This document shows, one piece after another, positions 22,861 through 40,274 of a stretch of DNA of 64,000 nt (the first letter of the stretch is position 1; the number at the start of each line of letters is the position of its first letter). The translations under genes were made by a program, and so were the position numbers. The stretch comes from an uncultured Alphaproteobacteria bacterium. GTDB taxonomy: Bacteria > Pseudomonadota > Alphaproteobacteria > RF32 > CAG-239. The notes below the pieces were generated by a model. That model was not told the DNA's origin. It did no database searches and was given only the letters and a program-made list of their open reading frames with translations. The stretch is from the NCBI GenBank assembly GCA_934254585.1, contig CAKQLF010000001.1:245250-309249 (forward strand), written 5' to 3'.

Positions 22861-24398
22861 TTTTCAGTAGGATTTTATAACTTCTTTTCTTAAGCTAAAA
22901 AAATTGCTTGTTATGATTTAATGACATCGATGTCACTTAATGGATATTGATTAACCTTTAACATCCAAGTTTTAAAGGTTGGCTTTTTCTTTATAATACA
23001 TCTCAAAATATTAAAAGTAAGCAAAAAAAAATATACTATTTGGAAATTTATTTTATCAAATCTGAACAAGTAGACAATTCTAGAAATAAAAAGTTGGAGA
23101 ATTGCTCATGCGAAAAAAACAGAAAATAACCTCAAAAAAGAAGAGCCAACGCAGCTTCAGAGCTTTTATTTCCATAGTTAAATGGTATAAAAATAAATTT
23201 GATGTCGCACTCTATATTAGTAATATATATGGAAATGAGTGTTAAAAGAAAGAAGTCAACATTCGTAAATTACCTTTATGGAGAGATATAACAAATATTC
23301 AAAAACTGGCGTATTTTTTTTATTTTATGGCAGAAACAAAAAAATTCACAAATGTTAAACCATTTACATTAGACTTCAGTAAACAATTTAGAGATTGGTA
23401 TAACAAGTTAATATACAAAAAGCTAAAAGCAGTCATCATCAAAAGAATATATGGTAACCTTGATTATGTCATTCAATCACATAATAAACCTATGATGTCC
23501 TTTATACTTGAAAATAAACATAAGAATAAAAGAAAAGATATAAATGATAAATAGACTCATATACACGGGATTAGAGAAGTCTTTGATGAAGATATTGATA
23601 GTAAAGTCAGATTAGCATTAAAGACATCGGTTTGTAATGGTAAGAAAGAATATAAAGGAACCAAATACAAAAATATGCTCCAAACTAAAAAAGGATATGA
23701 TAAAAATGGTGCAAACGGTTGGTTATGGTATCTTAATAAAGGTGCTTGTTCCAATAATGGTTTGTATATATCTAAATCTCTTCTTGAAAAAATACGTGAT
23801 GACTACAACCTGCTTTATAAAGAATATAAATCAGACGTTAAAAATTTAAAAGATCATGGTATCAAGATTAAATACATCAATTTATAAGCTATATGACAGG
23901 AATCGTATATAAATTGTTTTTATCCATAAATGGTTTAATTCTGTAAATCTTAATCAAAACCCCCACATAAACAAGCCTAAATCAGCCCATAACAAGCCGC
24001 TTAATGAAAATCTGAGTAAACCTATACCAAATAAAACGGCTGAGTCCAGAAATCAAAAAACAAGATATTTAACCTTGTGCCCTTGAGGGCAAGAGGTTGC
24101 TTTAAAAGTTCGTGACGTTAATGACAAGTTATTTTTACAACCTTTGACATAAGCTTGTTAAAAGTTCTTCTTCGCAAATTAGAAACGGAAAAATAATTAA
24201 AAAAATGGTTTTACTTTGCCATAGAATCACGACATTAAGTATATATCAAAAGAAATTGATAGTTATAACACATTGTAAATAGGTATTATTATGTTTATTA
24301 GCTCATAAATAACCCGTGGACTCAAGAATTGCTTTTTCATAATAAACCTATACCAAAAGCAAAATCGTTATCCACTGGCCAAAATATGAGATTTATGG

Positions 24399-24749
24399 TT
24401 AGTATTCCTCTGCCAACATAATTGTCATAACTCTGTTGGTTATATTTGGATTGCTTGGATTCTCTGATAAGTATTGATAATTCTTGTCATAGTAATCTAT
24501 TTTGAAGTAAATTGTCTCGCCGTTATAATCAAAACTTCCGAAGTCATGTTCGCCATGAGGATCGTTAGCTTTAGTAAAATGATTAAACTGTCTGACTTCT
24601 GATAAGATTTTTGCAATATCATCTTGTGATTTAGCATTTATACCAGCAGTTAACATTACTCTTCCACCGGTAAAGGTTTGTCGGAAGTTGTCATTTAAGG
24701 TTTTAACATCTGTCATAACACACCTCTTAGGCAGACATTTCAGAAGCAA
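24399..24749 (-). CDS. DUF3768-family protein (plasmid/ICE-associated)
   Basis: Motifs NDNFRQTFTGGRVMLTAGI and DPHGEHDFGSFDYNGETIYFKIDYYD match the DUF3768 family seen on alphaproteobacterial plasmids. Probable start at the internal MTDV. Confidence 0.55.
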   Translation of the reverse strand: MLLKCLPKRCVMTDVKTLNDNFRQTFTGGRVMLTAGINAKSQDDIAKILSEVRQFNHFTKANDPHGEHDFGSFDYNGETIYFKIDYYDKNYQYLSENPSNPNITNRVMTIMLAEEY

Positions 24750-24984
24750 GAAACATTTTGAATTTTCTCAAAGCCTGACGAACAGAGGTATGGCTTCTTT
24801 TGCCATAGCTTGATTTTTCACTGGCTGTTTCATATTGAGGCAGGATAGAAGAAATGTTTTCAACTAGATAAGCAAGTGAAAATTTCTCTTTTCTACAAAG
24901 CCCTTCTATCCGCCCATGATAATCCAAAGCAGTTGTTGGTTTATAGTTTTGCTCCAAGAGCCAGTTTTCAAATTGTTTCAACAT
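24727..24984 (-). pseudogene. Possible truncated tyrosine-recombinase N-terminal (SAM-like core-binding) domain remnant
   Basis: 85 aa; F..WL...Y.PTT...Y...I and a C-terminal ALRKFKMFL pattern like integrase N-termini. No catalytic domain follows. Confidence 0.25.
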
Positions 24985-25287
24985 CTCGGCTCTCCTTATA
25001 AACTGACAATTTCAGTTATCACAGCGCAGCCGCGAGCCTTTTCAACCTCACAGGCATTCATCGCATCACGTAGATACCAATAAATCGTCGGCGTCAAGAT
25101 TCCATTCACTTTAATTTGATATATAATCAATCTCCTTTGGGTTATTAACTATGTATATTATGCCGTGAATTTTCCCATCCGCGAGCCCGTAAAACTCACC
25201 GCGTTGGTAACATTTTGCTACGATTGAGATATTTAACAAATCAAATAAAAATTTTAATAATGAAATACACAATTGATATGATTAATT

Positions 25288-26397
25288 TTAATCATTTTCA
25301 TAATCAATTTCTTCAAAACGCAAATTTGTATCATCAATATAATATGTGACATACTTAATCTTGCAAATATAAGTTTCATTAAATTTCTTTAAGGCTTCAA
25401 TACTTTTTAGGTATCTTTTTGTTTTCCTGTTTGTTTTTTTAACAATAATTGTAGGCTCTATTATATCTGGAATCGGCTGAAAATATTGTTTAATCCAACG
25501 TAAATATCTTCCGATTTGCTCTGTTATCTCGGGATAAATAGTTGTTGATTTCAATTCCATAGGTATTAATATTCTTTTATTAGTTTCTGCATTTGTAGCC
25601 ATTAACATAATATCAATCCGCCGCATACCAACGCCACACATTACTTCATTACCTAACCACTCCATTCTGCTATTATTTAAAAAGATTTCCTTCAACTCTG
25701 AATCAGCATCAATAGACTGAGTTATATATGTTTGCAAAAAAGCTTCATAAGCGTAACTGGTATATATCAATTTGCGTTTCACATTGATAGGGTGTGAAAA
25801 TTCTAAGTTATACTGGCTTCGCACACCCTCTATTATGGTTTTACTGTTTTGATCATATGAAAATTGCGAAAAAGCAAGAGGTATATTATCATTTTTAGAG
25901 CTAATCATATCAATTAATCGTTTTGACTCAGCTGGAGTTATCATTGTATTACCCCTATTACCATCTAGCTTTCTATAAATCAACGACCATAAAATATCAT
26001 TAGGTTTTTCAACTCCATCTAAATTATCCAAAGCTTCCCATTCAGTTACTCCTTTGGCGAAAACTATATCAGGCTCTAATAAAACACGAAAAGTAAGTTT
26101 TTTAGACAATTCTGGTGTTGCTTGGGATTTGGGATCAATAAAGCATCTATCTTTTGCTTGAAATACGCCATAAAAATGACCTTTACCCAATTCTCCAGTA
26201 CAATAGAAAATAATTTTATCTCCTTTGCGTATTCGCGCAGAATCCGCCATCATACCAACCAAATTTTGGGCAACCTTTTGATTTTCCGCTGTATCATTAA
26301 ATTCTACATCTAAATCTCTAGCTCCTGTGCCAGCAAACATATACTTTAAATGTAACGGGAAAGTTTTTTCATTTACAATAAAAACATGTGTGGTCAT
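25288..26397 (-). CDS. Putative restriction endonuclease (C-terminal PD-(D/E)xK-like motif) with N-terminal PUA/EVE-like barrel
   Basis: 369 aa, last gene of the MTase operon. RIDIML...IPMELK fits D...ExK. N-terminal GDKIIFY...GHFYGVFQ resembles PUA-like/EVE folds. Not recognisably DpnII/MboI-like. Confidence 0.4.
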   Translation of the reverse strand: MTTHVFIVNEKTFPLHLKYMFAGTGARDLDVEFNDTAENQKVAQNLVGMMADSARIRKGDKIIFYCTGELGKGHFYGVFQAKDRCFIDPKSQATPELSKKLTFRVLLEPDIVFAKGVTEWEALDNLDGVEKPNDILWSLIYRKLDGNRGNTMITPAESKRLIDMISSKNDNIPLAFSQFSYDQNSKTIIEGVRSQYNLEFSHPINVKRKLIYTSYAYEAFLQTYITQSIDADSELKEIFLNNSRMEWLGNEVMCGVGMRRIDIMLMATNAETNKRILIPMELKSTTIYPEITEQIGRYLRWIKQYFQPIPDIIEPTIIVKKTNRKTKRYLKSIEALKKFNETYICKIKYVTYYIDDTNLRFEEIDYEND

Positions 26398-26408
26398 AGT
26401 CTATATGC

Positions 26409-27209
26409 TCATTTCCTAAATAAAAATATATACTCGTGCTTAAACAAATACAAACCATTAGATAATGCTCTATACCGCCATAAAGCTTGCTGATTTTGTT
26501 TACCTTTAGTTGTGTCAAAATTTTTAACAATTATTGATTTAAGTTTCAGTTTTTCTCTCTGTGCTGCTTGCATTGCGTAAAAACCTAATGGAACAATTTC
26601 ACCATTAGCATACTTATCACCAATGACAATTACAAGGTATCTCCCTTTTGCTAAAACCTCTACACTTTTCTTTATTATTAGCTGAAACCTCTCAATAAAA
26701 TCTACCAATGTTTTGGAATTACTAAGGTTATCCTCATCTTGTCCAAATTTTATAATATCCCAATAAGGAGGATGCAAGATAACGAGCTGCACCTCTTTAA
26801 GATTATGATTATTTAATTCTTGCATATAGTTAATCTTTAAACTATCGCCACATACAAGAGAGGCTTCTGCTTTACAACCTTCATCTAAAAATCTTGCAGC
26901 ATTATCAAGTGCTTGTTGAGTTTGAAGACATGTATCTTGATTTATTTCAAAACCAAGAGCATTACGATTAAGTCGCCTTGCTTCAATTAAGGTTGTTCCT
27001 CCTCCTGCAAATGGATCTAAAACCCAATCCCCAGCTTTTGTATATCTCATAATAAACTGGTAAGGAATCTGAGGAACAAAATTTCCCCAAAAACCATTTT
27101 TATGTCCATGCTCATTATCTCTTTTATCAATAAGCCATAATGAATCAGTCCAGATATCTGTTAGATTTTTCCAATTATGTAAATCAAGCTCATTTATCTT
27201 ATTCATCAA
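26409..27209 (-). CDS. DNA N6-adenine/N4-cytosine methyltransferase (N6_N4_Mtase family), second MTase of the locus
   Basis: Motif I DPFAGGGTT and motif IV HPPY. Its start overlaps the Dam-like MTase stop by 4 nt. Confidence 0.7.
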   Translation of the reverse strand: MMNKINELDLHNWKNLTDIWTDSLWLIDKRDNEHGHKNGFWGNFVPQIPYQFIMRYTKAGDWVLDPFAGGGTTLIEARRLNRNALGFEINQDTCLQTQQALDNAARFLDEGCKAEASLVCGDSLKINYMQELNNHNLKEVQLVILHPPYWDIIKFGQDEDNLSNSKTLVDFIERFQLIIKKSVEVLAKGRYLVIVIGDKYANGEIVPLGFYAMQAAQREKLKLKSIIVKNFDTTKGKQNQQALWRYRALSNGLYLFKHEYIFLFRK

Positions 27210-28195
27210 TTTTTCTTCAGTATATGTAAATACTCAATAGTTTTATCAGCTAAATAACTCCTATTAGCATCAGCTTTAAAGCGTTGATAATCTTTTGTTG
27301 CTAAGGAATATTCACCATATTTGTTCATTGTAGATTTTATATCATCAACAGACATCAAACCTTCATTATTATAACTTAAAAAAATATATTTAAATTTGGC
27401 ATTTTTTATCAAATCATCAAAACTATCTAAAACTTTATCTCTTTTACAATATAATGAACGACTATAATCTCTGAGCCCTGTTTTACCTTTAGGCTGAAAT
27501 TTATCATACAAAGCTATTGTATTAAGTAAATGATAATTGGCTCCATATTGTCGTTCATTATACGGAGGATCCAGATACAAAATATCACCTTGAATATGTT
27601 TAATAAGTTGATTGGCATCCTCGCAATATACTTGGTGGTCATGGTCATTTATCTGATATAAAGCAGGCTCCAAATTTAATGATTTTTGAGCAGATTTCTT
27701 TAATTTTTTCAAGAATGCACCATATACAGATGCCGTATTTGCAACTCTATCTGCGCTTTCCAATAATGATGCAAGTAAAAAGTAATATTGATTATCTGAA
27801 ATTTTGGCTGTATCTTTCCATACTTGTATTTTATTTCTTATTGCATCAATTTTTTTGCCATTTTCATCAGAAAAATATTGCCGCCCAGAACCACTTCCTA
27901 AACAATAATTATTAAAGATAAAACCTTCTACACCTTCAAGGCTCATCAAATCAGATATTAACTTCTGGTAATCCATAGCCAAATGATTGCCTATATAGTT
28001 ACGATTTAATATATAGCTATATCGTTCAATATCATTAGAAATTATCTGTTTTGTTTTTAATTTGAAATAACGACCAACGATACCTGTTCCTGCAAATAAA
28101 TCACAAAAAACACATGATTTAATATCATTTACGACACGAGATATATTATCATCTAAAAAAGAAAGTAATTTATATTTTGATCCGATATAGTTCAT
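27206..28195 (-). CDS. Dam-family (D12 class, alpha) N6-adenine DNA methyltransferase
   Basis: MNYIGSKYKLL (Dam N-terminal), FAGTG motif I and LDPPY motif IV. Arrangement is like DpnM/MboIA. Confidence 0.8.
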   Translation of the reverse strand: MNYIGSKYKLLSFLDDNISRVVNDIKSCVFCDLFAGTGIVGRYFKLKTKQIISNDIERYSYILNRNYIGNHLAMDYQKLISDLMSLEGVEGFIFNNYCLGSGSGRQYFSDENGKKIDAIRNKIQVWKDTAKISDNQYYFLLASLLESADRVANTASVYGAFLKKLKKSAQKSLNLEPALYQINDHDHQVYCEDANQLIKHIQGDILYLDPPYNERQYGANYHLLNTIALYDKFQPKGKTGLRDYSRSLYCKRDKVLDSFDDLIKNAKFKYIFLSYNNEGLMSVDDIKSTMNKYGEYSLATKDYQRFKADANRSYLADKTIEYLHILKKN

Positions 28196-28258
28196 TGTTT
28201 ACCTTAATTTAAAATTCGATTTAATTTACATATAACGCATAAAAAAATCATTTGTAAA

Positions 28259-28897
28259 TCAAATTTCTCCTTTTCGAGCTTTTTTAATCACTTCTTTTCT
28301 GTATTCTACGGGATCATATTGATAGCATCCTTCACATCCGTAGTCATGCAACGATTTTCCACCTTTATAATAAGCCATTGGATTTCCGTCTAAGTTACGA
28401 GCATCCCAACGCTCTCCAGTTTCCATGCATTTTTTACAAATTTGCCTTTTGGCATCATTTGCAGCTTTTGTAAGAGGCTGAAAGTCATCAATTGTTTGGG
28501 TGCTTAAATCCGAAACGCGAAAATTGTTCTTTCTACCATCTTTGTGATCAATTTCAATTTTGATATTTTCAGAATTACCCCTAATTCCAAGCATTACGCA
28601 GTTTTTATCTTTATAATATTCTTTTATATCTGAACGAATTGTTTGATTAAATGACGCATCAGTATTAAGACCGATTGTTCTAACGGCATCAATAGAATTC
28701 CCCGACGTTTGAGTTTTATCAAATTCCAGCTTATACCTTTTAGCCAAAGTAGACTCTTTACGACACCAACTTCCTCCATTGCCAAGTTTTAATTCCCTGT
28801 ATTCTCCAACGAATTCTGCAACAGAAACCCAGCGGCTATATCCCTGTTCATTTGGTGATGCCAATTCTAAAAATAGTTCAGTTTTTGTTTTTTTCAT
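28259..28897 (-). CDS. Putative HNH/zinc-finger nuclease (candidate restriction or nicking endonuclease)
   Basis: 212 aa. EIDHKDGRKNN (HNH-like D-H...N-N) plus CxxC...CxxC pairs (ICKKC, GCEGC). First gene of the apparent R-M operon. Confidence 0.35.
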   Translation of the reverse strand: MKKTKTELFLELASPNEQGYSRWVSVAEFVGEYRELKLGNGGSWCRKESTLAKRYKLEFDKTQTSGNSIDAVRTIGLNTDASFNQTIRSDIKEYYKDKNCVMLGIRGNSENIKIEIDHKDGRKNNFRVSDLSTQTIDDFQPLTKAANDAKRQICKKCMETGERWDARNLDGNPMAYYKGGKSLHDYGCEGCYQYDPVEYRKEVIKKARKGEI

Positions 28898-29420
28898 AAA
28901 ATGACTCCTTTATTGAAAAGCTTATGTAAATAAAAACAAAAAAACAAGAAATCTTATTTTGTTATCTGCAACTTTTATCGTTTCAACCTTTAACTTGGCA
29001 ATGTCAAAGGTTACAAAATTTCATTTTTAATAAAATTTTTCAAATAATCTCAAAAAACTTTAGTAGAAATTCGCAAGCTTCATATTCTATAAAATATGAC
29101 AAATGCGTATAATCAACTCAAAAATGAGTTATCAATTCTCTATCCCGATGTTACGGATATTGAATTAAAAGAAATGGCAAGCAATCTGATTGATTTTTAT
29201 ACAACGGCTGTAAAAGCCGTTTTAGAAGATGATACAAAAGAATTTGTTACTGATGACAAAAACTCTTCTTCATAACCTTATTTATTTTGTAAATTAGGTT
29301 AATTGTTTGAAAAATCAGCAAAATATTAGCAATAAAGTCGTCAGAAACAGAAAATAACCGCTTACATTCCCAAAATAACGCGACATAATATTATTATGTA
29401 AAAACAAAGGAGTAATGAAT

Positions 29421-31004
29421 ATGGCTAAGAAATACAGATATGCTAAAGCTGCACCATGCGTTCAGGCTGTCATTTTTGCACGCGTATCTACCAAGGAACA
29501 AGAACCAGGGGGTTCTCTAAAGGCTCAGAAAGAAGCAATGGAAGATTATTGTAACAAAAAGGGACTTCCTATTGTTCAGAAATATAAAGCGGTTGAAAGT
29601 TCCACCAATGGCAAACGTACAAAATTCAATGAAATGTTAGACTTTGTAAAAAAGCAGAAACGCAAAACCGCGATTGTTGTCCATTGTATTGACCGTTTTC
29701 AAAGACGCTTCAATGAATGTGTGGAAGTTGAAGAAATATTATTAGATGACAAAACTGACCTGCATTTTTGCAAAGAAAGGTTAATTCTCACTAAAAATAG
29801 TCCGTCTTCTGATATTATGCGTTGGGATATGGGCATTTTATCCGGCAAAATGTATGTGGCAAATCTGCGAGATAATGTTAACAGAGGTATGAATTATAAC
29901 TGGTCGATTGGAAAATATCAGACAAAGGCTCCGGTTGGGTATTTGAATATTAACAAAGACATTATTGTTGATTCAGAACGTGCACCTTTAGTTAAAAAGA
30001 TGTTTGAGATGTATGCGACCGGACAATATTCCGTAAAACGCTTGCAAGAATTTGCCTCGGAAATGAATTTATGTTCTTCTCATTCTAAAACAAATAAACC
30101 ATTAGGACGAGAAACCATATATGCGATGTTAAAAAATCCGTTTTATTATGGTGAAATGGTAATCCGTGGTGAAATTATGCCACATGCTTATGAACCTCTT
30201 ATTTCAAAATCATTATATGATAAAGTTCAAGAAGTGCGTTCTGGTGGTAAAATACATACAAAAATGCGAGAATATGCCGGAATTCCTTTTGTGTTTCGCG
30301 GATTGATAAAATGTGCGGAATGTGACGGCACCATCTCATCAGAACAGCATTTTAAGAAAAGTGGCAGAAAATATACTTATTTGCGTTGTACACACTCAAA
30401 CGGTTGTTGTCATCAAGGTCTGGTTAGCGAAAACCTTTTATTACAACAACTTGATGATGAAGTTTTTAGTAAACTAAGACTTAGCAAGAATATTTTAGAG
30501 CCTCTGAAAAAATGCGTGCAGAAAAAATTGATTGAAGAATCCGAAGCAAATACCATTGTAAAACGCAAGATCTCCGTGGAATTAAACAATCTTGAAGCTA
30601 AAGAGAGACGGGTTAAGGATTCATTTTTTGACGGAGACATAACCAGAGAGGAATGGCAGGAAGAAAAAGCTATTATTGCCACCAAGAGGGAAGAATTACA
30701 ACGGACAGCTAAAAAATATGCCGATATTAGCAAAGATATTCAAGTAACTGTTAATGAAATTTTAGATATTGCGGCAACTGTTTCCGATATTATGAAAAAA
30801 GCTGATTCTACTCAGCAAAATAAATTGTTAAGTCTTATGCTCTCAGAATGTTATCTTGACGGTCAGAGACTAATTTATACGTTGAGAAAACCTTTTGACA
30901 AGCTGATTAACCTCAAAAATGCCAGTACCTGGTTTGATTTTGATAAATCAGACATCAAGGAATACAAAAACAGGACAGATAAAGTGGAGAGGTATAAGAA
31001 TTGA
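29421..31004 (+). CDS. Large serine recombinase (resolvase catalytic domain, recombinase domain, zinc ribbon, coiled coil)
   Basis: AVIFARVSTKEQE catalytic-serine motif. Cys-rich zinc ribbon (CAECDG...CTHSNGCC) and a C-terminal coiled coil. Opposite strand to the rest of the island. Start at 29421 has an aaggag RBS. Confidence 0.8.
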   Translation: MAKKYRYAKAAPCVQAVIFARVSTKEQEPGGSLKAQKEAMEDYCNKKGLPIVQKYKAVESSTNGKRTKFNEMLDFVKKQKRKTAIVVHCIDRFQRRFNECVEVEEILLDDKTDLHFCKERLILTKNSPSSDIMRWDMGILSGKMYVANLRDNVNRGMNYNWSIGKYQTKAPVGYLNINKDIIVDSERAPLVKKMFEMYATGQYSVKRLQEFASEMNLCSSHSKTNKPLGRETIYAMLKNPFYYGEMVIRGEIMPHAYEPLISKSLYDKVQEVRSGGKIHTKMREYAGIPFVFRGLIKCAECDGTISSEQHFKKSGRKYTYLRCTHSNGCCHQGLVSENLLLQQLDDEVFSKLRLSKNILEPLKKCVQKKLIEESEANTIVKRKISVELNNLEAKERRVKDSFFDGDITREEWQEEKAIIATKREELQRTAKKYADISKDIQVTVNEILDIAATVSDIMKKADSTQQNKLLSLMLSECYLDGQRLIYTLRKPFDKLINLKNASTWFDFDKSDIKEYKNRTDKVERYKN

Positions 31005-31101
31005 ACCAATACAGGTTACGCAAAATTTCAAAGCTAATGACGCTATGAAAATCAATTGTGCAAAAACGATAAGAATTTTCTATGTTAAGGAGTATGCAAA
31101 A

Positions 31102-32475
31102 TTAGTTTTCAATTAGATATGAAGAAATCACGCGTATCCAAGATGACAAATACAAGATTTCAATACCTAATTTTTCTTCTAATGTATCTTTAGCTTGTTG
31201 TAATTGCTTCATGATGTCATTAATATTATGCTCTTTTATGAAGTTATATTCTTTTTCTTTATTATATAAATAATGTCTCAAGCACAGTTCTTTGGCTTCA
31301 GTTGTAGGATATGACATCATTACACTATACTCTTGTCCATTTTTACTTTTTCGTATATTGGTCACAGTATTTATAATGCCAAATTCTTGAATATCGCTTT
31401 CAGGGTCATTTTTTATTATTTCTTTACACTGAGGACAATCACAAACTTTTTCAAAATATATACTTTTGCTATTAAGCCATCCTTCATCTAATAACAGCTG
31501 AATTATATTTCTAAAATGAAAGCGTTTGTGAGCTATAGGTAAATAAAATTTAGAAATAGGGACGCCTCCTCCTACGGGGAAAACACTTCTAGATTCTCCA
31601 TATTCCATACCGTGACAACAAGCCTGCAACAATCCCAAATTAATAAGTATTAGTGAAAAATAACTGCCGTATAATTGTGAAACTGGAATGTTTTTTTCTT
31701 TAAATTTTACTAACAAGTATAAATAATTGTTTAGTAAAACATCTCCAGCATCTTTTTCATCAAACGCATCAATCCACAATAAAATTTCACAGGGATTAAC
31801 TTTTGAGTATTCATCAACTAAAAGGTTAAGCTTGTCCTTATCCAACAAAATGCTTGAATTAATAACAAGTTGTGCAGAAATAGAAGGATGATAAGTTTTA
31901 GACAATTCAATCGCTTTAGTATTAATATGTAACCAGTGATTGAAATTATTATCAGATAAATAAAAATAAGGAGCTATTAAACAGCAAGGAGCTACGCATA
32001 AACTGTTTTCATCATTTCCTAAAATATACTCTATGTATTCTTTATATTCATTTTTTTCTTCTAATACTTCTTTTTTTATAGTATTTTGCTGAAATTCAAT
32101 AACTTTTTGACATAGTTCTTTTAAAAAGGTGTCATTATCATCGAAGTCTGTTAACTCAATTGACCGCTTTTTACATGAAATTATATCTTTTAATGTGTCA
32201 CCGTAAAAGCTGAGAAGCTTTTCAATAGATTTTTTCAAATTACCATCAGATCCAATCAAACCTTGATAGTATTGGAATGCATACGTTTGAGGGTCAATTA
32301 TGAAATCTTTTTTACATAATTCATTGCTTATAAATTTGGAAATAGAATTAGTACAATGTGCAAAGATATTTGCATTTAGTATTAAAACATCATATGAATC
32401 ATTAAAACTTGAAACATATTTTTTTTCTGCATTGGTACCAAAGCGTAATAAATGTGTTCCTTTAATCATACCCAA
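31102..32475 (-). CDS. Cys-rich protein with tRNA-guanine transglycosylase (TGT/DpdA)-like motifs; 4th gene of candidate defence operon
   Basis: 457 aa. LNANIFAH (compare TGT LGNTFHL), DPQTYAFQ (compare DSGGFQ), IDAFDE, VGGGVP, a CDCPQC zinc knuckle (compare E. coli Tgt CDCYTC) and a downstream RHYL. Assignment is by motif only. Confidence 0.3.
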   Translation of the reverse strand: MGMIKGTHLLRFGTNAEKKYVSSFNDSYDVLILNANIFAHCTNSISKFISNELCKKDFIIDPQTYAFQYYQGLIGSDGNLKKSIEKLLSFYGDTLKDIISCKKRSIELTDFDDNDTFLKELCQKVIEFQQNTIKKEVLEEKNEYKEYIEYILGNDENSLCVAPCCLIAPYFYLSDNNFNHWLHINTKAIELSKTYHPSISAQLVINSSILLDKDKLNLLVDEYSKVNPCEILLWIDAFDEKDAGDVLLNNYLYLLVKFKEKNIPVSQLYGSYFSLILINLGLLQACCHGMEYGESRSVFPVGGGVPISKFYLPIAHKRFHFRNIIQLLLDEGWLNSKSIYFEKVCDCPQCKEIIKNDPESDIQEFGIINTVTNIRKSKNGQEYSVMMSYPTTEAKELCLRHYLYNKEKEYNFIKEHNINDIMKQLQQAKDTLEEKLGIEILYLSSWIRVISSYLIEN

Positions 32476-32885
32476 ACTCCATTGATTCTGTTTTTAAAAG
32501 CTTCATTTAACCAAATTTTTCCAACCTTCCATACTTTTCTATTATGTTTTGCAGGGTAAATGGTTTCTATTAATTTGTCACTATCCTTATCAAAGAAAAC
32601 AAGACCAACATCAGTTTTTTCCATTGCTTTTGATAATTTTTCGGGTATTTTTTTCTTAGGTTTAGGGATACATATATATACTTCATTTGTGCCTAAAAAA
32701 TGACTCGATGCTTGCTCTATGGCTCGTTTCCAATTATCAATTTTAAATTCAATAGCAATTAATTGGTTTTTTTTAAGGTAAACAAGATCTATAGACTGTT
32801 GCATAAAAGGAACCTCCGTTACAACTTGAATTCCTTTTTTTCTTAAATAATCTTGAACTTTATTTACCATCTCAATTTCGTACAT
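32466..32885 (-). CDS. Small PD-(D/E)xK-like nuclease-fold protein; 3rd gene of operon
   Basis: 139 aa. TEVPF...IDLVYL...IAIEFK gives an E-P...D...ExK pattern like restriction-endonuclease/Hjc-like folds. Confidence 0.35.
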   Translation of the reverse strand: MYEIEMVNKVQDYLRKKGIQVVTEVPFMQQSIDLVYLKKNQLIAIEFKIDNWKRAIEQASSHFLGTNEVYICIPKPKKKIPEKLSKAMEKTDVGLVFFDKDSDKLIETIYPAKHNRKVWKVGKIWLNEAFKNRINGVWV

Positions 32886-32895
32886 AATCCAGTCC

Positions 32896-33423
32896 TTATA
32901 TTATGAAATCTGCTTGTCTTTTTATTTCAGTAGATAAATGCCTAAATCCCATATATGTACCCCATATTCTACAAATGCAGTATAGTAAATAAAGAAAAAT
33001 TATAATTATTAACCCATTAAAGATATCTAAATATTTTTCTTGCGCAAAGACTTTTCCATATTTACTGCATAAGAGCCAAGCATTTTTTATAGCTGCAGTA
33101 CCAAAAATTAAGATAGCGGAAACTATTAACCTTGAAGTGTATTTTGCATATTTATTGATATGTTTCTTTAAATTTATTTTATTCTCAAAAGCTACAGACA
33201 TTTGCTTGATGAATAAAGAGAAGGATGTGCTCATACTATCGTCATATACTAGATTATTGTGTATTTTATTTTCTATTTTTTCAATAAATTCGGCAAGAAG
33301 CGAAGTTTTCGTCAATAAAAGTGAATTTAAAATTTGATTAGCTTTATCATCAAATTTAGTAAATATAGGGAAAATAATTCCCAGTAGAACACCTGCAACT
33401 GCTAAAATATCCTCAAATCCCAT
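32896..33423 (-). CDS. Small multi-pass membrane protein (candidate toxin/effector); 2nd gene of operon
   Basis: 175 aa with 3-4 hydrophobic helices. Sits 3 nt downstream of the Panacea-domain gene. Confidence 0.4.
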   Translation of the reverse strand: MGFEDILAVAGVLLGIIFPIFTKFDDKANQILNSLLLTKTSLLAEFIEKIENKIHNNLVYDDSMSTSFSLFIKQMSVAFENKINLKKHINKYAKYTSRLIVSAILIFGTAAIKNAWLLCSKYGKVFAQEKYLDIFNGLIIIIFLYLLYCICRIWGTYMGFRHLSTEIKRQADFII

Positions 33424-33426
33424 TAT

Positions 33427-34014
33427 TTAATAACCTTTCAATACTTTTTCTTTTATTTTTGATTTCTCAGTAAATTCCGGGTATTTAGTATATACATATC
33501 GCAAAATATCACGCAACTTTGCCTTATTGTATCTGGCTTTAAATGCTGATAAAATTTCTTTTTGATTATTAGACAAGCTTTCATATTTATTCTTTTGCTG
33601 AATGAACTGAACTCCTTTGTCACTGATTTCAAAGCGTTCTAATGCATATTCAACAGGTTTTACATCTAATTCTTTTTCCGCATAATCATTAAATTCTGAA
33701 ATTTCTTCATAAGTTAAAATATCACTACTATTTGAATATGAAGTTGAGATAAAATCTATATTTTTTAAGAAATCAATATCTTTAAATGCTTTAATAGACA
33801 TTGGACCAAAATTCCAAGCGGTAAAGAAAAACAAATCATCACTATATTCCAGTGTATCTTCAGTAAATTTTTTTAAAATTTCTTTTTCAAAAATAAAAAG
33901 GAGTTTTGTTAATTTTGTCCGACCTTCTATAGCTTCGCGGAATTCTTTTGTATAACCGGGAGAATACAAAAGCAACATGATTATATCAACAGATGTTAAT
34001 TTTATTTTGGACAT
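33427..34014 (-). CDS. Panacea-domain (DUF4065/GepA-like) protein, candidate antitoxin; 1st gene of operon
   Basis: 195 aa. TKLTKLLFIF...FTAWNFGPMSIKAF matches the Panacea hallmark (T/N)KLQKLLY...AWxxGPV. Confidence 0.45.
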   Translation of the reverse strand: MSKIKLTSVDIIMLLLYSPGYTKEFREAIEGRTKLTKLLFIFEKEILKKFTEDTLEYSDDLFFFTAWNFGPMSIKAFKDIDFLKNIDFISTSYSNSSDILTYEEISEFNDYAEKELDVKPVEYALERFEISDKGVQFIQQKNKYESLSNNQKEILSAFKARYNKAKLRDILRYVYTKYPEFTEKSKIKEKVLKGY

Positions 34015-34123
34015 TGTAAAACCTTTACGAACTACTCTAATATATTATAATACAATTTATTCCTATCAAGTTAAGAAATAATAAATTAATTTGCACAGCT
34101 TTTAATCTTTTTAGCTCGGAAAC

Positions 34124-34245
34124 TGTGAGGTAAGCATCACCAATACAAACGGCAGGCATAAAAACCTGCCGTTTTGCTTTATTTTCCAAGCCTTTCAGCG
34201 AGTTCGAATGTTGTAAATTTGAAAATTGCGTTTTCGGTTTTTTGT
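34124..34245. repeat. Direct repeat copy 1 (att-like, tRNA 3' end plus terminator hairpin)
   Basis: gtgaggtaagcatcaccaatacaaacggcaggcataaaaacctgccgtttt...ctttattttccaagcctttcagcgagttcgaa...tttgaaaattgcgttttcgg. Near-identical to copies 0 and 2. Confidence 0.7.
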
Positions 34246-34264
34246 TAATAAAGGTTAAATTTTA

Positions 34265-35080
34265 TCAACGTCGTATTCCTATGTCTCTTAAAGTTTGATT
34301 AACGATTTTATTAACATTATTTTGTTGTCTTTCCTTAGCAAAAAATCTATTTCCAGCTTTTACGCAATCCGGGCAAATCGGAGATAAGCCTTCTCTTTTG
34401 CAAGCTAATCTGGCTCTTGTTATATCGCTGAAATCTCCATCAACTCTTTGTTGCATAATACAAAGACCATCTTCGTCCGTACAATGAGTTCCATAAATAT
34501 CGGCAGAATTTTCCCTTCCTTCATAGGTGAGGCCTATTACATGGCCAAATTCATGCATTAATACAGTTTTGAAATTTTCACAATCAATGATGTTGCCAGA
34601 GTCGTCTGAAAATCTGCGGGCAGAAACGACACATCCAATTCCTTCATCTCCCAACCCGAAACAATAATTCATTTCTTGATTGGGATATAAATCATCTTTG
34701 GTAAGTAAAATTGTAAATTGCGGAATTTCTTTATTTGTTGGATCGGTCTGCATGGTTTGAAATAATGTGCTTGCATTTAATTGATTAGGACGACCGTCTA
34801 GGATAGCATCTCTTTTGGCATTTTCAATGTGCCAGCGTGTACTTTTATATGGAGCCAGATAAAGCTTGCCGTTTTCCGGATATATATATCCAGTGTCTTT
34901 CCATGCACCTAAATTCGTGATTGGATAATCATTTTTATATTGAGGAAAGCAAGCCATCAATTCTTTTATGGCTTCAACGGCTATTTGGTTTGCCTGAGGA
35001 TTGAGACCGTCTTGGCTGACAATAAATATATCTTTTTGCTTCATAAACGTTATCCCCCTCCTTAGTATAGAATATACCAT
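34265..35080 (-). CDS. Archaemetzincin-like zinc metalloprotease (peptidase M54-like)
   Basis: HEFGHVIGLTYE...HCTDEDGLCIM...CPDC fits the archaemetzincin signature HExxHxxGxxH + CxxxxCxM + CxxC. Confidence 0.6.
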   Translation of the reverse strand: MVYSILRRGITFMKQKDIFIVSQDGLNPQANQIAVEAIKELMACFPQYKNDYPITNLGAWKDTGYIYPENGKLYLAPYKSTRWHIENAKRDAILDGRPNQLNASTLFQTMQTDPTNKEIPQFTILLTKDDLYPNQEMNYCFGLGDEGIGCVVSARRFSDDSGNIIDCENFKTVLMHEFGHVIGLTYEGRENSADIYGTHCTDEDGLCIMQQRVDGDFSDITRARLACKREGLSPICPDCVKAGNRFFAKERQQNNVNKIVNQTLRDIGIRR

Positions 35081-35124
35081 AATTTTATGTAAAAAAAAAG
35101 AAGTTTCAGCTTGTGAAACATAAA

Positions 35125-35249
35125 TTAAGCATCACCAATACAAACGGCAGGTATAAAAAACTGCCGTTTTTCTTTATTTTCCAAGCCTTTCAGCGAGTTC
35201 GAAAGTCGTATTTTCGAAAACCGCTTTTTGGGAAGTTTTTACGAACTCG
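35125..35249. repeat. Direct repeat copy 2 (att-like)
   Basis: ttaagcatcaccaatacaaacggcaggtataaaaaactgccgttttt ctttattttccaagcctttcagcgagttcgaaag...ttttgggaagtttttacgaactcg. Overlaps the last ~22 codons of the 35190..35843 gene. Confidence 0.7.
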
Positions 35250-35843
35250 TTTATGTTGATTTTTTTGTTTATAACAAATTGTTACCAATACATCATTGTT
35301 TGGATAACCATATAAATTGGAATCATATTGCGGATTACTCACTTTGATGTATTTTGTTTCTCCGTAATTAATTTTTCCCAGCGCATGCGAAACATATCCA
35401 CTTCCGTCTCTAGGGGCATAATAAGGAATTGAACCTTTGATAGCAAACATTCTCACATATCCTCCCTTTTTATCTTTAGCTTCTTCTCCTGTCCAAAAAT
35501 AGATGTGACTATCGTTTTCCCAAATATTCATAGCTTTCATAAGTGAATCGTTTCTATTACCATAAATGCTTGTTTCTGTTGTTTCCTTATTATATATTTT
35601 TTTTGCTAATTTATGTAGATCATTTCCTGTAGGTAGATTCTCAATGTGCCCGCAAGCTTTGGCTGCACCAGCTAGGTAATCATTGTCATAAGGACAATAT
35701 TTTAAGCCGAGAGTTTCTTTATAAGAGAGGCATTCTTTTTGACTTAATGGAGTATATTCTACTTTTATGAAGTCTTTTGCATAAGCATGATTGATTAGGC
35801 CTATACTGATAATGCTTAGTATTTTTATGCTATTTTTAATCAA
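35190..35843 (-). CDS. Secreted protein of unknown function (signal peptide)
   Basis: 217 aa. Signal peptide MIKNSIKILSIISIGLINHAYA. C-terminal tail (RKNFPKSGFRKYDFRTR) is encoded inside repeat copy 2. Confidence 0.5.
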   Translation of the reverse strand: MIKNSIKILSIISIGLINHAYAKDFIKVEYTPLSQKECLSYKETLGLKYCPYDNDYLAGAAKACGHIENLPTGNDLHKLAKKIYNKETTETSIYGNRNDSLMKAMNIWENDSHIYFWTGEEAKDKKGGYVRMFAIKGSIPYYAPRDGSGYVSHALGKINYGETKYIKVSNPQYDSNLYGYPNNDVLVTICYKQKNQHKRVRKNFPKSGFRKYDFRTR

Positions 35844-35925
35844 AGTAGTCTCCTAGTGATAATTATGATGCCTTTTGAACATATTATTTATTCATTAATA
35901 TATCATTAAACAGTAGCTCGTAATT

Positions 35926-35979
35926 TGTGAGTTAAGCATCACCAATACAAGCGGCAGGTATAAAAACCTGCCGTTTTTT
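35926..35979. repeat. Direct repeat copy 3 (truncated, att-like), followed by a strong GC hairpin 35992-36013
   Basis: tgtgagttaagcatcaccaatacaagcggcaggtataaaaacctgccgtttttt, then aaaaccccgcg ttaga cgcgggg ttt. Confidence 0.65.
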
Positions 35980-36114
35980 GTATAAAGAAAACCCCGCGTT
36001 AGACGCGGGGTTTAGTGTAGTTTATAGCGGTGAGTTTGACAAAGTGCTTCTAGTAATTACTTTAACACAAACTTTTTAGAAACTTAAAGCATAACCCCAC
36101 AAAATGCTACAGAC

Positions 36115-36723
36115 TCAAAATTTACTTTTTATATAGCGATGTATTGTTATCCAACTGCAGTCCATCAATCTGGCCATTTCGGCTTTTGATATGCCTTTAT
36201 TTATCAGTTCGACAATTTTATTATGTTTTTTCTCAAGTTTTTGATATGAAAGTCCTCGTGGTCGTCCAAGCCGTTTTCCCTCATCTTTTAGGCGTTTTAG
36301 CGAGTTTTTTGTTCGCTCGGAAATCAACTGGCGTTCCAACTCTCCGACTAATGAAAAGGCAAAGGCTAAAATTTTACTTTGAATATCAGCACCTAAGCGG
36401 TAATTTTCTTTCAATGTCCAGATTTGGCAACCTTTTTCCAAACAATGTTGCAAAATTCCCATAACTTCAAGCAAATTTCTTCCTAAACGGCTTAATTCGG
36501 TTGCAATTAAAATATCTCCTTTTTTAAGCTTTTTCAATAATTTACCAAGTTTTCGTTCGGTGAGCAATTTGCGTGAAGAAATTGTTTCTGAAATCCATTT
36601 ATCAATAGGGATATTGTGTTGTTGCGTATAAGTTAGAATTTCGTGTTGTTGGTTTTGGGTGTTTTGATGGTCGGTGCTAACCCGAATATAAGCGTAGTAC
36701 ATAAAAAAAGTCCTTATAGTCAT
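36115..36723 (-). CDS. Small serine recombinase (resolvase/invertase family) with C-terminal HTH
   Basis: YAYIRVSTDHQNTQNQ catalytic-serine motif, ELSRLGRN and C-terminal HTH (ISKAEMARLMDCSWITIHRYI). Probable start at MYYAY (36702). Confidence 0.8.
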   Translation of the reverse strand: MTIRTFFMYYAYIRVSTDHQNTQNQQHEILTYTQQHNIPIDKWISETISSRKLLTERKLGKLLKKLKKGDILIATELSRLGRNLLEVMGILQHCLEKGCQIWTLKENYRLGADIQSKILAFAFSLVGELERQLISERTKNSLKRLKDEGKRLGRPRGLSYQKLEKKHNKIVELINKGISKAEMARLMDCSWITIHRYIKSKF

Positions 36724-37445: not shown

Positions 37446-40274
37446 TTAATCAACTCCGATGACTTCGCGGCGGCCAACACGATCAGGGGCTGTCACCACT
37501 CCTTCATCTTCCATTCTTTCAATTAAAATGGCGGCACGGTTATAGCCAATCCGCAATTTGCGTTGAATATAGCTTATGGAAGCTTTTTTATCGGTGCGGA
37601 CAATTTCAACCGCTTGGTTATATAAATCATCATCACCGCCGTTGCTGCCGCTCATTTCGCCTTTGTCAAACACCGGAGTGTCTTTGCCGGAGTTTAATTC
37701 TCCTTCCGTTACGTCTGCCACATATTTAGGCTCGCCTTCTGATTTTATAAATTCAACAACGCCTTCAACTTCAGCATCGGTGACAAAGCAGCCGTGAACT
37801 CGTATCGGGCGCAGGCCTGACGGCATATAAAGCATATCACCCATACCAAGCAATTGTTCGGCACCTTTTTCGTTTAAGATGGTTTTACTGTCTATGCCGG
37901 TAGTGACGTGAAAGCTGATACGGCTTGGAAAATTGGCTTTGATGGTACCGGTAATCACATCAACAGACGGACGTTGCGTTGACATAATCAAGTGAATACC
38001 CGCAGCGCGAGCCATTTGCGCCAAACGTTGAATCGCCGCTTCTACTTCTTTGCCGGCTACCAGCATTAAGTCTGCCATTTCATCTACCACAATTACAATA
38101 TAGGGCATTGGGGAAGTATCTATCAGCTGTTCTTCATAAAGCGGTCGACCGGTTTCTTTATCAAAACCGACTTGAATTGTTTTTTTGATTTCTTTGCCTG
38201 AGGCGCGCATATCTGCAACTTTTTGGTTATATCCGGCTATGTTGCGGACATTTAATAAAGCCATTGCACGATAGCGGTCTTCCATTTCTCTTACTGCCCA
38301 TTTCAGGCCGACAACCGCTTTAGCCGGATCGGTGATAACCGGTGTTAATAAATGTGGAATTCCGTTGTACATTGAAAATTCAAGTTGTTTCGGGTCAATC
38401 ATAATTAATTTGCATTGGTCCGGAGTCAGACGGAAAAGCAGGGACAAAATCATTGAGTTGACGCCGACGGATTTTCCGGAACCGGTTGTACCTGCCACCA
38501 AAAGGTGAGGCATTTTGGCCAAATCGGCGTAAACGTGTTGACCGCCAATGTCTTTACCAAGTGATACGTTCAGAATGTTTTTGCTGTTTTTAAATTCAGC
38601 ATCTTCAAGTAATTCGCGCAGCCAAACGGTTTGACGTTTTTCATTCGGTAATTCGATACCAATGGTGTTATGACCGCTGACTACGGCCATACGAACCGAG
38701 GCTACAGCCATAGAGCGGGCAATGTCATCGGACAAACCAATCACGCGAGCCGTTCGTGTACCAGGAGCCGGTTCAAGTTCGTATAAAGTCACTACCGGAC
38801 CGGGGCGTACTTTGACAATTTTGCCTTTTATGCCAAAATCTTGCAAAACAGTTTCCAATTTGGCGGCGTTTTCTTTGAGCAAGTTTTCATCGTATTCTAT
38901 ATCGCCGGAATCTTTGGGTATAGATAGAAGATTGATGTCCGGAAGATGATATGTTTTTTTCTCGTCAGTTTTGTTTATAGCCTCTGTTTTTGCGGTTTTA
39001 TCGGTCAGAGAAGCTGATTTCGTTGTTGTTTTTTCGGTTGGTGCAAATGTCGGAACAGGGGTTGGTTCAATTCGATTGCTTGCAGTTTGTTGCACTTGTT
39101 TCGTGACCGGTTGTTGAGCTTGTAAACTTGAAGTTTCAGCGATGTTTGTCGGTTTTAAGCTGAGTAATTCTTCTTGTTGAGGCAGCGGAGACAAGGCAGA
39201 TGTAGAATTTTTAGCCGGAACAGAGCGGCTTCCTTCGGTTTGGTAGATGTCTTCCGGAGTAATTTTTTTAGATGGTTTTTTGGTGTTCTGGTTGGCAAAG
39301 TCACCTTCTTTAATAAAGTCAAAAGTCGGATTATAACTGTTTCCAGAGGCAAAAGCAGGCTCACTGCCGGTAGTTTCAACAGCAAGATTTCCATAGTCGG
39401 AAGTGGCTGATTTGGGTAACTCGATGGTCAAATTGCCGCTTTGAGTTGCGGCGGAAACTGGTGAGATGTTATTTTGACTACGCATAAATTGCGGGGTGAC
39501 AAGATTTTCTTTTTGCTCGAAACTCGGTTCAACTCGTTTTTGCGGAGTAAGTTGTTTTTTGCTGTGCAGCTTATTTTGCAAATAACTCGGATTGATTTCT
39601 TTAAATTCTTTGAAGTTTTTAATATTTGCAAGATGTTTTGCAATATTGACGACCATACTGCTGAAAGTTTGTAACATTCGGAACAGACGTTCGCTCAAAC
39701 GCAGCCATAAAGTGAAGGTTATGCCGGCGGCAAAGTTAAAGGACAAGACGCTGACAAATAAAACAATTCCTTCTAATAAGAGTGTATTATATGAGAAATT
39801 GAGCATATTTATATAGTTGTTAAGCGGTCGGCTGATGACGCGACTCCATTCGCCTGTAAGGTTGTAAGGCAGGTTAAAACGCCCTAAAAAAGAACTGCTG
39901 GTCAAATCCAGAAAAGCTGAAAAACATAACATTCCGACTAACCAAGCAAAAATACGCATTTTATATTCGGCAAAAGCTTGATAGCGAACTAATCCTAATC
40001 CCCATATCACGGGAACAATAAGATAAATTATCAGCGAAAGGCCAAAAGAACTTAGCACAAAGTCCGCGCTATTTGCGCCAAACTGTCCCAACCAATTTTT
40101 TACGGCAACACCCGTTGCGGCGGCTTTGTTAAACGAAGGGTCGTCGGCGTGATATCCCAAAAGGCTGATATAAACGAGCAGCGGAAAGATTATGAAACCT
40201 AATCCGATAACTTCACACAACAGTTTTTTCCACCAGCTTTTCGGCTGTTCTTTGGTTGTTTTTTTCTTTGCCAT
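37446..40274 (-). CDS. ftsK: DNA translocase FtsK
   Basis: N-terminal TM helices, a Pro/Ser/Thr-rich linker, the motor domain Walker A GTTGSGKSVGVN and a C-terminal gamma domain. 942 aa. Confidence 0.9.
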   Translation of the reverse strand: MAKKKTTKEQPKSWWKKLLCEVIGLGFIIFPLLVYISLLGYHADDPSFNKAAATGVAVKNWLGQFGANSADFVLSSFGLSLIIYLIVPVIWGLGLVRYQAFAEYKMRIFAWLVGMLCFSAFLDLTSSSFLGRFNLPYNLTGEWSRVISRPLNNYINMLNFSYNTLLLEGIVLFVSVLSFNFAAGITFTLWLRLSERLFRMLQTFSSMVVNIAKHLANIKNFKEFKEINPSYLQNKLHSKKQLTPQKRVEPSFEQKENLVTPQFMRSQNNISPVSAATQSGNLTIELPKSATSDYGNLAVETTGSEPAFASGNSYNPTFDFIKEGDFANQNTKKPSKKITPEDIYQTEGSRSVPAKNSTSALSPLPQQEELLSLKPTNIAETSSLQAQQPVTKQVQQTASNRIEPTPVPTFAPTEKTTTKSASLTDKTAKTEAINKTDEKKTYHLPDINLLSIPKDSGDIEYDENLLKENAAKLETVLQDFGIKGKIVKVRPGPVVTLYELEPAPGTRTARVIGLSDDIARSMAVASVRMAVVSGHNTIGIELPNEKRQTVWLRELLEDAEFKNSKNILNVSLGKDIGGQHVYADLAKMPHLLVAGTTGSGKSVGVNSMILSLLFRLTPDQCKLIMIDPKQLEFSMYNGIPHLLTPVITDPAKAVVGLKWAVREMEDRYRAMALLNVRNIAGYNQKVADMRASGKEIKKTIQVGFDKETGRPLYEEQLIDTSPMPYIVIVVDEMADLMLVAGKEVEAAIQRLAQMARAAGIHLIMSTQRPSVDVITGTIKANFPSRISFHVTTGIDSKTILNEKGAEQLLGMGDMLYMPSGLRPIRVHGCFVTDAEVEGVVEFIKSEGEPKYVADVTEGELNSGKDTPVFDKGEMSGSNGGDDDLYNQAVEIVRTDKKASISYIQRKLRIGYNRAAILIERMEDEGVVTAPDRVGRREVIGVD

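Follow-up and report, generated by a model that had tools for sequence, protein, structure and literature searches.

What kind of array occupies positions 34124–36723 of this stretch of DNA, and which enzyme moves its genes? The window (the whole stretch analyzed, 64,000 nt of contig CAKQLF010000001.1 from an uncultured Alphaproteobacteria bacterium) contains there two single genes set between repeats of ~120 bp, one for a protease (cassette M) and one for a protein with a signal-like N-terminus (cassette S), followed by the gene of a small serine recombinase. A preliminary description likened this layout to an integron-like cassette array with tRNA-derived att repeats, capped by a serine recombinase rather than a tyrosine one. 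We consider it likely that integrative elements have inserted in tandem at the 3' end of a tRNA-Glu(UUC) gene and that the region is the distal part of their array, built by accretion of the type found in the staphylococcal cassette chromosome (SCC) and in ssrA islands, and shrunk to integron-like single-gene cassettes.

The repeats themselves point to the tRNA. A repeat search of the window found a 129-nt direct repeat at 34109–34237, 35104–35232 (83% identical) and 35911–36039 (62%, truncated), with cores that begin at 34136, 35131 and 35938. Each interval has one substantial open reading frame (ORF), on the minus strand in both cases (34265–35044/35080 between copies 1 and 2, 35190–35843 between copies 2 and 3), which confirms the three repeats with one minus-strand gene per interval that had been described. 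A fourth copy (R0) lies 11.7 kb upstream at 22424 and takes in the 3' end of tRNA-Glu(UUC) (22356–22430, plus strand; ARAGORN and Rfam), so calling the repeats tRNA-derived was correct. In the window there are four occurrences of the 21-nt core ATCACCAATACAARCGGCAGG; 100 shuffles gave none. All four copies have the same orientation, the first being fused to the tRNA, and all open with ATCACCAAT, composed of the final 7 nt of the tRNA (ATCACCA, the left part of the 9-bp crossover core, on the attB side) and AT, and continue with a terminator-like hairpin. Since the repeats start with the tRNA 3' end, the region is the far end of a tandem array integrated there. The GC content falls from ~0.40 to ~0.30 between 22.4 kb and 37.4 kb, and the entire stretch from tRNA-Glu to ftsK (37446–40274) therefore looks acquired.

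Each repeat can be divided into a core, a hairpin and two arms (all features on the plus strand). To the right of the hairpin, R0, R1 and R2 share a d-arm of ~90 nt with the motifs d1 (GAGTTCGAAT) and, in inverted orientation, d2 (CCGAACTCG / CGAACTCG); the d-arm also bears two further copies of a T-loop-like motif at fixed spacing. To the left of the core, R1, R2 and R3 have a conserved 23-nt p-arm, AGCTCGnAAnnTGTGAGnTAAGC (consensus AGCTCGTAAAYYGYGAGKTAAGC), instead of tRNA sequence; in a logo of 89 non-identical junctions, conservation starts ~25 nt left of the core and there is none before. R0 (22424–22544; core, replacement terminator hairpin, d-arm with d1 and d2) is the attL of the first element of the array, island A, whose right end is the p-arm TAGCTCGGAAACTGTGAGGTAAGC at 34112–34135. 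R1, the repeat of cassette M (34136–34232; core 34136–34144, terminator hairpin 34147–34174), has a d-arm with d1 only, while R2, the repeat of cassette S (35131–35252; core 35131–35139, hairpin 35142–35170), has the full d-arm (d1 and d2). The p-arm of cassette M, CAGCTTGTGAAACATAAATTAAGC (35108–35130), is degenerate and fails the p-arm match; its GCTCGTA motif is mutated, so the junction between cassettes M and S is probably inactive. R3 (35915–35978) is a terminal site made of the cassette S p-arm (35915–35937), the core (35938–35946) and a terminator hairpin (35949–35976), with no d-arm. As had been described, this truncated last repeat is followed by a GC hairpin (35989–36013; 11 bp, 7 of them GC; terminator-like for the minus-strand recombinase gene) and then by the serine recombinase; locus L030 (L-numbers are labels of the retrieved relative loci) keeps the GC hairpin after its own terminal site.

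The hairpin after the core varies in sequence and keeps its pairing by compensatory changes, which fits the expectation for a terminator. It resembles a plus-strand intrinsic terminator in every repeat; the bidirectional terminators of the preliminary description were borne out on that strand, while on the minus strand only the third copy scored. Folded as single strands, the repeats form a plain terminator hairpin and a separate d1/d2 inverted repeat. RNAalifold found no consensus structure among 76 core plus d-arm sequences, the d1/d2 inverted repeat shows little true covariation except for the GAGTTCGAA / AAGTTCGGA pairing, and Rfam (at the gathering threshold or E up to 1) gave no match in the repeats or in the left end of island A. 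We discarded the idea that the 28-bp hairpin (11+6+11) is XerCD/dif-like: it varies compensatorily, and homology breaks at ATCACCAAT, not at the hairpin.

With the core pattern, a scan of a single genome for each species yielded 100 stretches, nearly all of them from uncultured gut or rumen Alphaproteobacteria. The cores in these stretches are preceded by tRNA-Glu (UUC or CUC), by a p-arm or by other short non-coding units. In 123 fetched loci there are 222 sites, with at least two sites in 67 loci, and the orientation is never mixed within a locus. Among the repeat-bounded units of the species-representative loci, 22 of 29 contain one ORF and a few contain two or three (island A is the largest); sites are mostly 0.7–1.5 kb apart. 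With a looser core match we obtained 76 closed units in 49 clusters, 13 of which recur, many in different contexts. The cassette cargo includes HAD and alpha/beta hydrolases, GNAT and hexapeptide acetyltransferases, methyltransferases and DUFs, with defense-like genes in larger units, and gene orientation is mixed. The cassette M protease is also encoded, as an identical protein, on gut-metagenome contigs. No transfer or phage genes were seen; carriage by phages was considered and dropped, since the two IMG/VR matches to the p-arm plus core pattern are chance matches in phage structural genes.

Comparison of related loci shows that units are present or absent precisely at the 9-bp core, which is the variable cassette content that the preliminary description had proposed to look for. 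In the strains L002, L004 and L006 the tRNA-Glu directly abuts R1 and the protease gene, without island A, so island A (22433–34135) is an insertion; in L003 this point is occupied by a different island. Three further loci, from three strains, represent a single genomic position: L159 has the tRNA, ATCACCAAT and an old element of 3 kb, L126 has this layout plus a new recombinase-bearing island of 9.4 kb closed by a p-arm and ATCACCAAT, and L153 has a third arrangement with another island. The insertion in L126 is exact (ATCACCAAT is duplicated and the flanks diverge immediately outside), which places the crossover within the 9-bp core.

Single cassettes behave in the same way. Cassette S (807 bp) is 98.3–99.4% identical in the window, L002, L030, L100, L036 and L034, while the housekeeping DNA upstream of the tRNA is ~85–87% identical, where alignable, among the same six genomes, four of which are representatives of different species. 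In these six genomes it occurs in at least four array contexts, directly after the tRNA (L030, L100), after the protease cassette (the window, L002–L004) or after other p-arms (L034, L036). In L107 it stands between the tRNA and a recombinase-bearing island. Its homology ends exactly at ATCACCAAT on both sides. Other cassettes behave likewise; of c10 and c11, for example, L101 has both, and L077 and L098 have a single one each. These cassettes and repeats are thus shared across contexts and species, and support a cassette array with tRNA-derived att repeats.

The recombinase that accompanies these ends is found in the islands. Island A (22433–34135, plus strand) is a low-GC integrated element of 11.7 kb, delimited by composition, ORFs with Pfam matches and the empty-site comparison above; it contains a conserved left-end non-coding region, DUF3768, a restriction-modification system, a large serine recombinase, and SocA-like and other cargo. 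The large serine recombinase (529 aa; 29415–31004, plus strand) has the Pfam domains Resolvase, Recombinase and Zn_ribbon_recom, a domain set shared by its homologs in L126 and L109, matches a PHROG integrase family (E 3e-63), and matches NCBIfam CcrA weakly (61 bits, against a cut-off of 700). It sits in the first element of the array, outside 34124–36723, and island A has no small recombinase partner. A metagenome scan with this protein yielded 77 loci. All homologs of at least 74% identity with enough flank are in islands, with a p-arm and core 0.9–4 kb downstream and, where the locus reaches that far, tRNA-Glu joined to a core with d-arm 5–9 kb upstream, always in a single orientation; att sites are absent around homologs of 58% identity or less. 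The canonical island order (L126, L109) starts with a ~260-aa gene, DUF3768, an 85-aa gene and cargo (often an autotransporter or restriction-modification), and ends with a ~198-aa small serine recombinase, a 62–68-aa ORF, the large recombinase, one gene and the p-arm. The product of the 62–68-aa ORF is a candidate directionality factor.

Several observations concern the islands themselves. The ~260-aa gene (MRKKQKI...) conserved at the left end of related islands is represented in the window by short ORF fragments only (23327–23887), so island A is partly decayed, though its large recombinase is full length. Its restriction-modification cargo module (26409–28897) consists of an IceA/NlaIII-like endonuclease gene (Pfam ICEA, E 1.6e-100) and two adjoining DNA methyltransferase genes. 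Just inside island A, 22640–22880 has a copy of the tRNA-Glu promoter-like sequence (AAAAGTTCTTGACCTT...TATACA), then a GC-rich stretch of ~160 nt closed by the terminator GAGGCCTTTACGTGCGAAGGCC; homologs (L126 2040–2290, L109 1500–1760, L014 366–606, L031 4411–4653) are 78–90% conserved among related islands, making this a candidate island-borne small RNA, for which Rfam has no match and covariation is weak, and only among five sequences. In some islands, L120 (8903–9391) and L109 (8870–9319), the genes of the small and the large recombinase have between them fragments of a second large serine recombinase, each with just a Resolvase or a Recombinase domain, which hint at an ancestral module with two large recombinases.

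The att sites also fit a large serine recombinase in one respect. Counted from the core, the motif GYTCGWR is at -17 in attB, where it reads GTTCGAG and belongs to the tRNA T-loop, while its p-arm counterpart, GCTCGTA, is at -22; this concerns the left half-sites only. An outward shift of 5 bp in attP relative to attB is the rule for the zinc-ribbon-domain motif of serine integrases (PMC3783163), and the geometry of the left half-sites, which matches this rule, is suggestive; the shift would place the predicted central dinucleotide inside the 9-bp core, with a crossover predicted near positions 2–4.

Could the single-gene units be decayed, immobile remnants of islands, which differ between genomes through internal deletion and through homologous recombination between the ~120-nt repeats after DNA uptake? 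Several observations favor this: units of 2–3 kb keep only a C-terminal fragment of the large recombinase (a decay series in L158–L161, L126 and L159), island genes are degraded in the window, the cassette M p-arm is degenerate, and the d1 segment is a mosaic among the cassette S copies. However, cassette S keeps both arms and breaks exactly at the core even where its right flank shares just the p-arm and core (32 nt), its identity is far above that of the flanking genome, and cassettes such as S, c10 and c11 are found alone or in combination, and to either side of islands that bear a recombinase. One-gene units are also the majority class (the 22 of 29 above). We regard remnants reshuffled in this manner as an unlikely explanation of the array.

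A classical integron, or a cluster of attC sites lacking integron-integrases (CALIN), whose cassettes are recombined by a tyrosine IntI encoded elsewhere, would account for single-ORF cassettes, for separating repeats of about the length of the Vibrio cholerae repeats (VCR), and for a cargo of integron-like acetyltransferases, hydrolases, methyltransferases and DUFs. A crude motif scan of ~100 related loci gave no match to a tyrosine recombinase, Pfam found only serine recombinases in the neighboring ORFs of the window, and among the Pfam matches listed for 67 non-redundant proteins inside units there was no recombinase family other than Resolvase. The only recombinases that these screens found inside repeat-bounded units are the ~530-aa large serine recombinase and its small partner, so the recombinases linked to the array are serine enzymes, as had been proposed. 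The repeats are anchored on the tRNA 3' end and conserved in sequence rather than in the R''/L''/L'/R' structure of attC, the genes have mixed orientation, and one promoter-like site belongs to cassette M itself. An integron in the strict sense is therefore extremely improbable here.

What, then, is the role of the small serine recombinase next to the array? Its gene (36115–36702, minus strand) encodes 195 aa counted from M8 of an ORF that extends to 36723, the start at 36702 being suggested by homologs, and matches Pfam Resolvase (E 2.4e-32) and HTH_7; an exact-protein look-up returned no record. The protein matches the NCBIfam master DNA invertase Mpi family over its full length (259.2 bits, just below the cut-off of 272), its best PDB relatives are the Gin invertase (E 9e-15), and invertases score above resolvases. 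Its closest relatives (82–84% amino acid identity) are in L112 and L120, directly upstream of the large recombinase in islands of 9–12 kb with the same att ends; nucleotide homology stops ~35 nt outside the gene. The small recombinase is also found beside the terminal repeat in L001. The idea that it caps such arrays in general did not hold up, since L002 and L004 have the same two cassettes with no small recombinase after them, and in L030 the same GC hairpin is followed by an IS200-like gene.

One alternative is that the small recombinase itself captures and excises the repeat-flanked cassettes, as the enzyme of an integron built on a serine recombinase. It adjoins the terminal repeat in both the window and L001, small recombinases are a conserved component of the island module, and in L040 a homolog lies directly upstream of a non-tRNA site (CTCACCAAT plus d-arm) that is followed by cassettes. 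The motif common to the p-arm, d1 and d2 may represent multiple, res-like binding sites. In addition, both SCC and the Dehalococcoides ssrA islands have a smaller serine recombinase besides the large one, which is needed, or has been suggested, as its partner (PMC3146451). On the other hand, neither island A nor the L107 island has a small recombinase of its own, although their att ends are the same, and none is near the arrays with the same cassettes (L002, L004, L030). Its matches are to DNA invertases (Mpi, 259 bits, and Gin), which act on inverted sites within one molecule, whereas all 222 of the 222 sites are direct repeats. We know of no resolvase-type or invertase-type small serine recombinase that carries out intermolecular integration. 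Capture by the small recombinase is, in our judgment, quite improbable.

Because its relatives are of the island type, its matches are to invertases, and it is absent from island A, from L107 and from arrays with the same cassettes, we read the small recombinase as a probable orphan of an island recombination module. Its role is most likely that of an invertase or an accessory partner, not that of a cassette integrase. Since such a partner enzyme exists in the Dehalococcoides ssrA islands and SCC, it may have a helper role; promoter inversion is another possible role. In most islands mapped, the small-recombinase gene is divergent from a gene for a large surface protein or secreted protein, and in L120 a 13-bp perfect inverted repeat CACCGTCTATTTG (7614–7637 / 7750–7773, around ~112 nt) lies between the divergent operon and the Mpi-like small-recombinase gene, making the segment a candidate invertible promoter. 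No convincing inverted repeat was found near the small-recombinase gene in the window. Inversion of an att segment by the invertase-like enzyme found no support (no att segment is inverted among the 222 sites of the 123 loci), and a Tn3-type resolvase with its res site does not fit (there is no transposase, the repeats lack the recombinase in most loci, and the protein scores higher against invertases). In a synteny test of the segment of the recombinase plus ORF167 as an island remnant, the right flank was not conserved in related loci. Arrays also begin at a non-tRNA site, TCCTG/CTCACCAAT plus d-arm (L040 99–909, L094 ~4860–4923, in oriented coordinates), which lies 186 nt downstream of a small-recombinase gene in L040 and could represent either a secondary site of attachment or an island that was rearranged.

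Returning to tandem accretion at the tRNA, each element would have an attP consisting of the 23-nt p-arm, the 9-bp core ATCACCAAT, a replacement tRNA terminator hairpin and the ~90-nt d-arm. Recombination between attP and the tRNA end would insert the element and regenerate the target, such that each element would bring the last bases of the tRNA and a new terminator, and later arrivals would be inserted afterwards, apparently often beside the tRNA. The autonomous members would be islands of 9–12 kb (island A being one) with a large serine recombinase, usually with a small one just upstream. The protease and secreted-protein units would be non-autonomous mini-elements of one gene each that share these ends; presumably the large recombinase integrated them in trans, or they came along with a neighboring island. 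The large serine recombinase at 29415–31004 is most likely the integrase for all elements of the array, as suggested by the company it keeps; cassettes would then be mobilized in trans, and the d-arm would probably be a part of their attachment sites.

Several points weigh against this explanation. Excision and integration are deduced from comparing sequences, and the catalyst was assigned to the large recombinase by association alone. Of the arrays seen in 8-kb loci, most lack a nearby recombinase, so that action in trans must be assumed. The direct repeats (the 9-bp core plus ~110 nt of similar flank) are long for the site of a large serine recombinase, the known site requirements of such enzymes do not explain the d-arm, and the right half-sites show no symmetry with the left ones. 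The mosaic d1 region of cassette S implies that homologous recombination between repeats acts too. Finally, the screen for tyrosine recombinases consisted of a crude motif search and of the matches listed for families.

The cassette M gene (34265–35044, minus strand) encodes a 259-aa metzincin-type zinc protease with the motif HEFGHVIGL, followed downstream by C...C.M...CPDC. Its likeness to archaemetzincins is weak: NCBIfam archmetzin gives 48 bits (E 1e-12), below the cut-off of 145, Pfam Reprolysin has E 0.006, and the archaemetzincin in PDB has E 0.24. The promoter-like site of the gene is at 35093–35064 on the minus strand. The protein of the cassette S gene (35190–35843, minus strand) is 217 aa long, has a signal-like sequence at its N-terminus and matches no family. 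Its ORF enters repeat 2 by ~21 codons, in agreement with the preliminary description, which took this as a cassette boundary that had cut into the gene. The second part does not stand. In four other species (L030, L100, L036 and L034) the gene ends with ...ICYK*, and the ORF of the window is 25 codons longer, its tail (35190–35262) being encoded by the d-arm; the stop codon changed from TAA to CAA in the lineage of the window, and this loss explains the read-through tail. The recombination boundary is 51 nt past the cassette S stop and the d-arm is a part of cassette S, so the gene was not cut.

Other units and targets were found around the same tRNA. The cassette arrays can be separated from tRNA-Glu by GC-rich non-coding units of ~180–480 nt, in some cases in tandem (L008 3699–4109, L020 2540–3030, L013, L077, L078, L044, L087, L105, L046, L109 12509–12690); they open with ATCACCAAT and a terminator and close with a true tRNA 3' fragment (..AATCCCGTTGGG). 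We asked if they are a tmRNA or another tRNA; ARAGORN and Rfam find only tRNA-Glu, 180–480 nt further upstream, so the GC-rich sequences are separate non-coding mini-units, and they resemble a second mini-element family, with a putative crossover in the T-loop. In L005 (~270–340, contig end) and L083 (from ~2274 onward) the d-arm is broken directly after GAGTTCGAA by new sequence, ATCGCAAAAACGGC..., which in L005 leads to the beginning of a gene for another large serine recombinase; the T-loop-like d1 motif seems to serve there as the target of a different element that bears a recombinase. The window also has a 6S RNA gene (49237–49393; Rfam, 58.8 bits), which is unrelated to the array.

A further step is to see in these arrays a 'serine integron' of uncultured gut and rumen Alphaproteobacteria, in which the tRNA-Glu 3' end would be a fixed capture site and a large recombinase, supplied by occasional islands of 9–12 kb, would insert and excise independently mobile cassettes of 0.7–1.5 kb from a shared pool, each with a ~150-nt attP and a replacement tRNA terminator. 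We put this forward tentatively, with slightly less belief than disbelief. If cassettes do move as single genes by means of a large serine recombinase, integron-like capture would have evolved on a second, unrelated recombinase chassis, and, with double-stranded att sites and a different recombinase, it would be an independent invention of the capture logic of integrons. It would explain how accessory genes (hydrolases, acetyltransferases, proteases, restriction-modification and other defense-like genes) pass at 98–99% identity from one species to another in a clade of gut Alphaproteobacteria that is abundant but uncultured. The enzyme is a candidate engineering tool: it would be a natural serine integrase with sharply bounded sites (a 9-bp core, and attB and attP arms that are defined), of the sort wanted for genome engineering. 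For the analysis of metagenomes, the repeats near tRNA-Glu in these genomes should be taken as att sites, which can break or mis-join assemblies.

How does this system compare with known ones? Vibrio superintegrons (~120-bp VCR/attC) likewise have mostly single-gene cassettes with ~120-nt repeats between them, and integrons in general share the additions at one fixed site, the cassettes common to several genomes and the similar small-enzyme cargo. The arrays here differ in that no tyrosine IntI was found, there is no attI and no folded-strand attC architecture, and they have a tRNA anchor, sequence-conserved repeats, mixed gene orientation and a promoter-like site at cassette M. The array is functionally integron-like, yet fails the features that define integrons (IntI, attC). 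The tycheposons of Prochlorococcus (Hackl et al., bioRxiv 10.1101/2020.12.28.424599) also target tRNAs, push older elements outwards and leave partial tRNAs between remnants, and a minority of them use large serine recombinases. Unlike the array here, they are mostly tyrosine-recombinase elements with replication modules, and that paper describes no arrays of intact single-gene cassettes with conserved two-sided arms.

Large serine recombinases are known to build tandem composites in two other systems. Some SCC members have no ccr genes and depend on recombinases in trans, and the Dehalococcoides ssrA islands are ~10–30 kb in size. In SCCmec and SCC composites and the Enterococcus cassette chromosome (Ccr; PMC6222049), the 3' end of one conserved gene is where large serine recombinases insert elements, and the site is regenerated, giving tandem composites with direct repeats in between. 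Their target differs from the one here in being the protein-coding rlmH, with two large Ccr proteins and elements of kilobases to tens of kilobases. The ssrA islands (DsiB/DsiA; McMurdie et al. 2011, PMC3146451) are more similar in detail: they are in tandem downstream of a small stable-RNA gene, each is bounded by a short direct repeat of the 3' end of that gene, a conserved motif comparable to the p-arm precedes each repeat, a large (~540 aa) and a small (~200 aa) serine recombinase form a pair, and some members are integrase-less and were proposed to be cis-mobilizable. The array here differs from them in its target (the extreme 3' end of tRNA-Glu rather than the T-loop of tmRNA), in its small partner (Mpi/Gin-like, with a helix-turn-helix domain), in the dominance of single-gene cassettes of 0.7–1.5 kb and in the long conserved right arm (the d-arm). 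We found no description of a tRNA-Glu cassette-array system in the literature searched. By analogy, mechanism and layout appear to match tandem accretion by large serine recombinases, above all that of the Dehalococcoides ssrA islands, while the miniaturization to a majority of single-gene units, the long conserved two-sided attP and the host clade look new.

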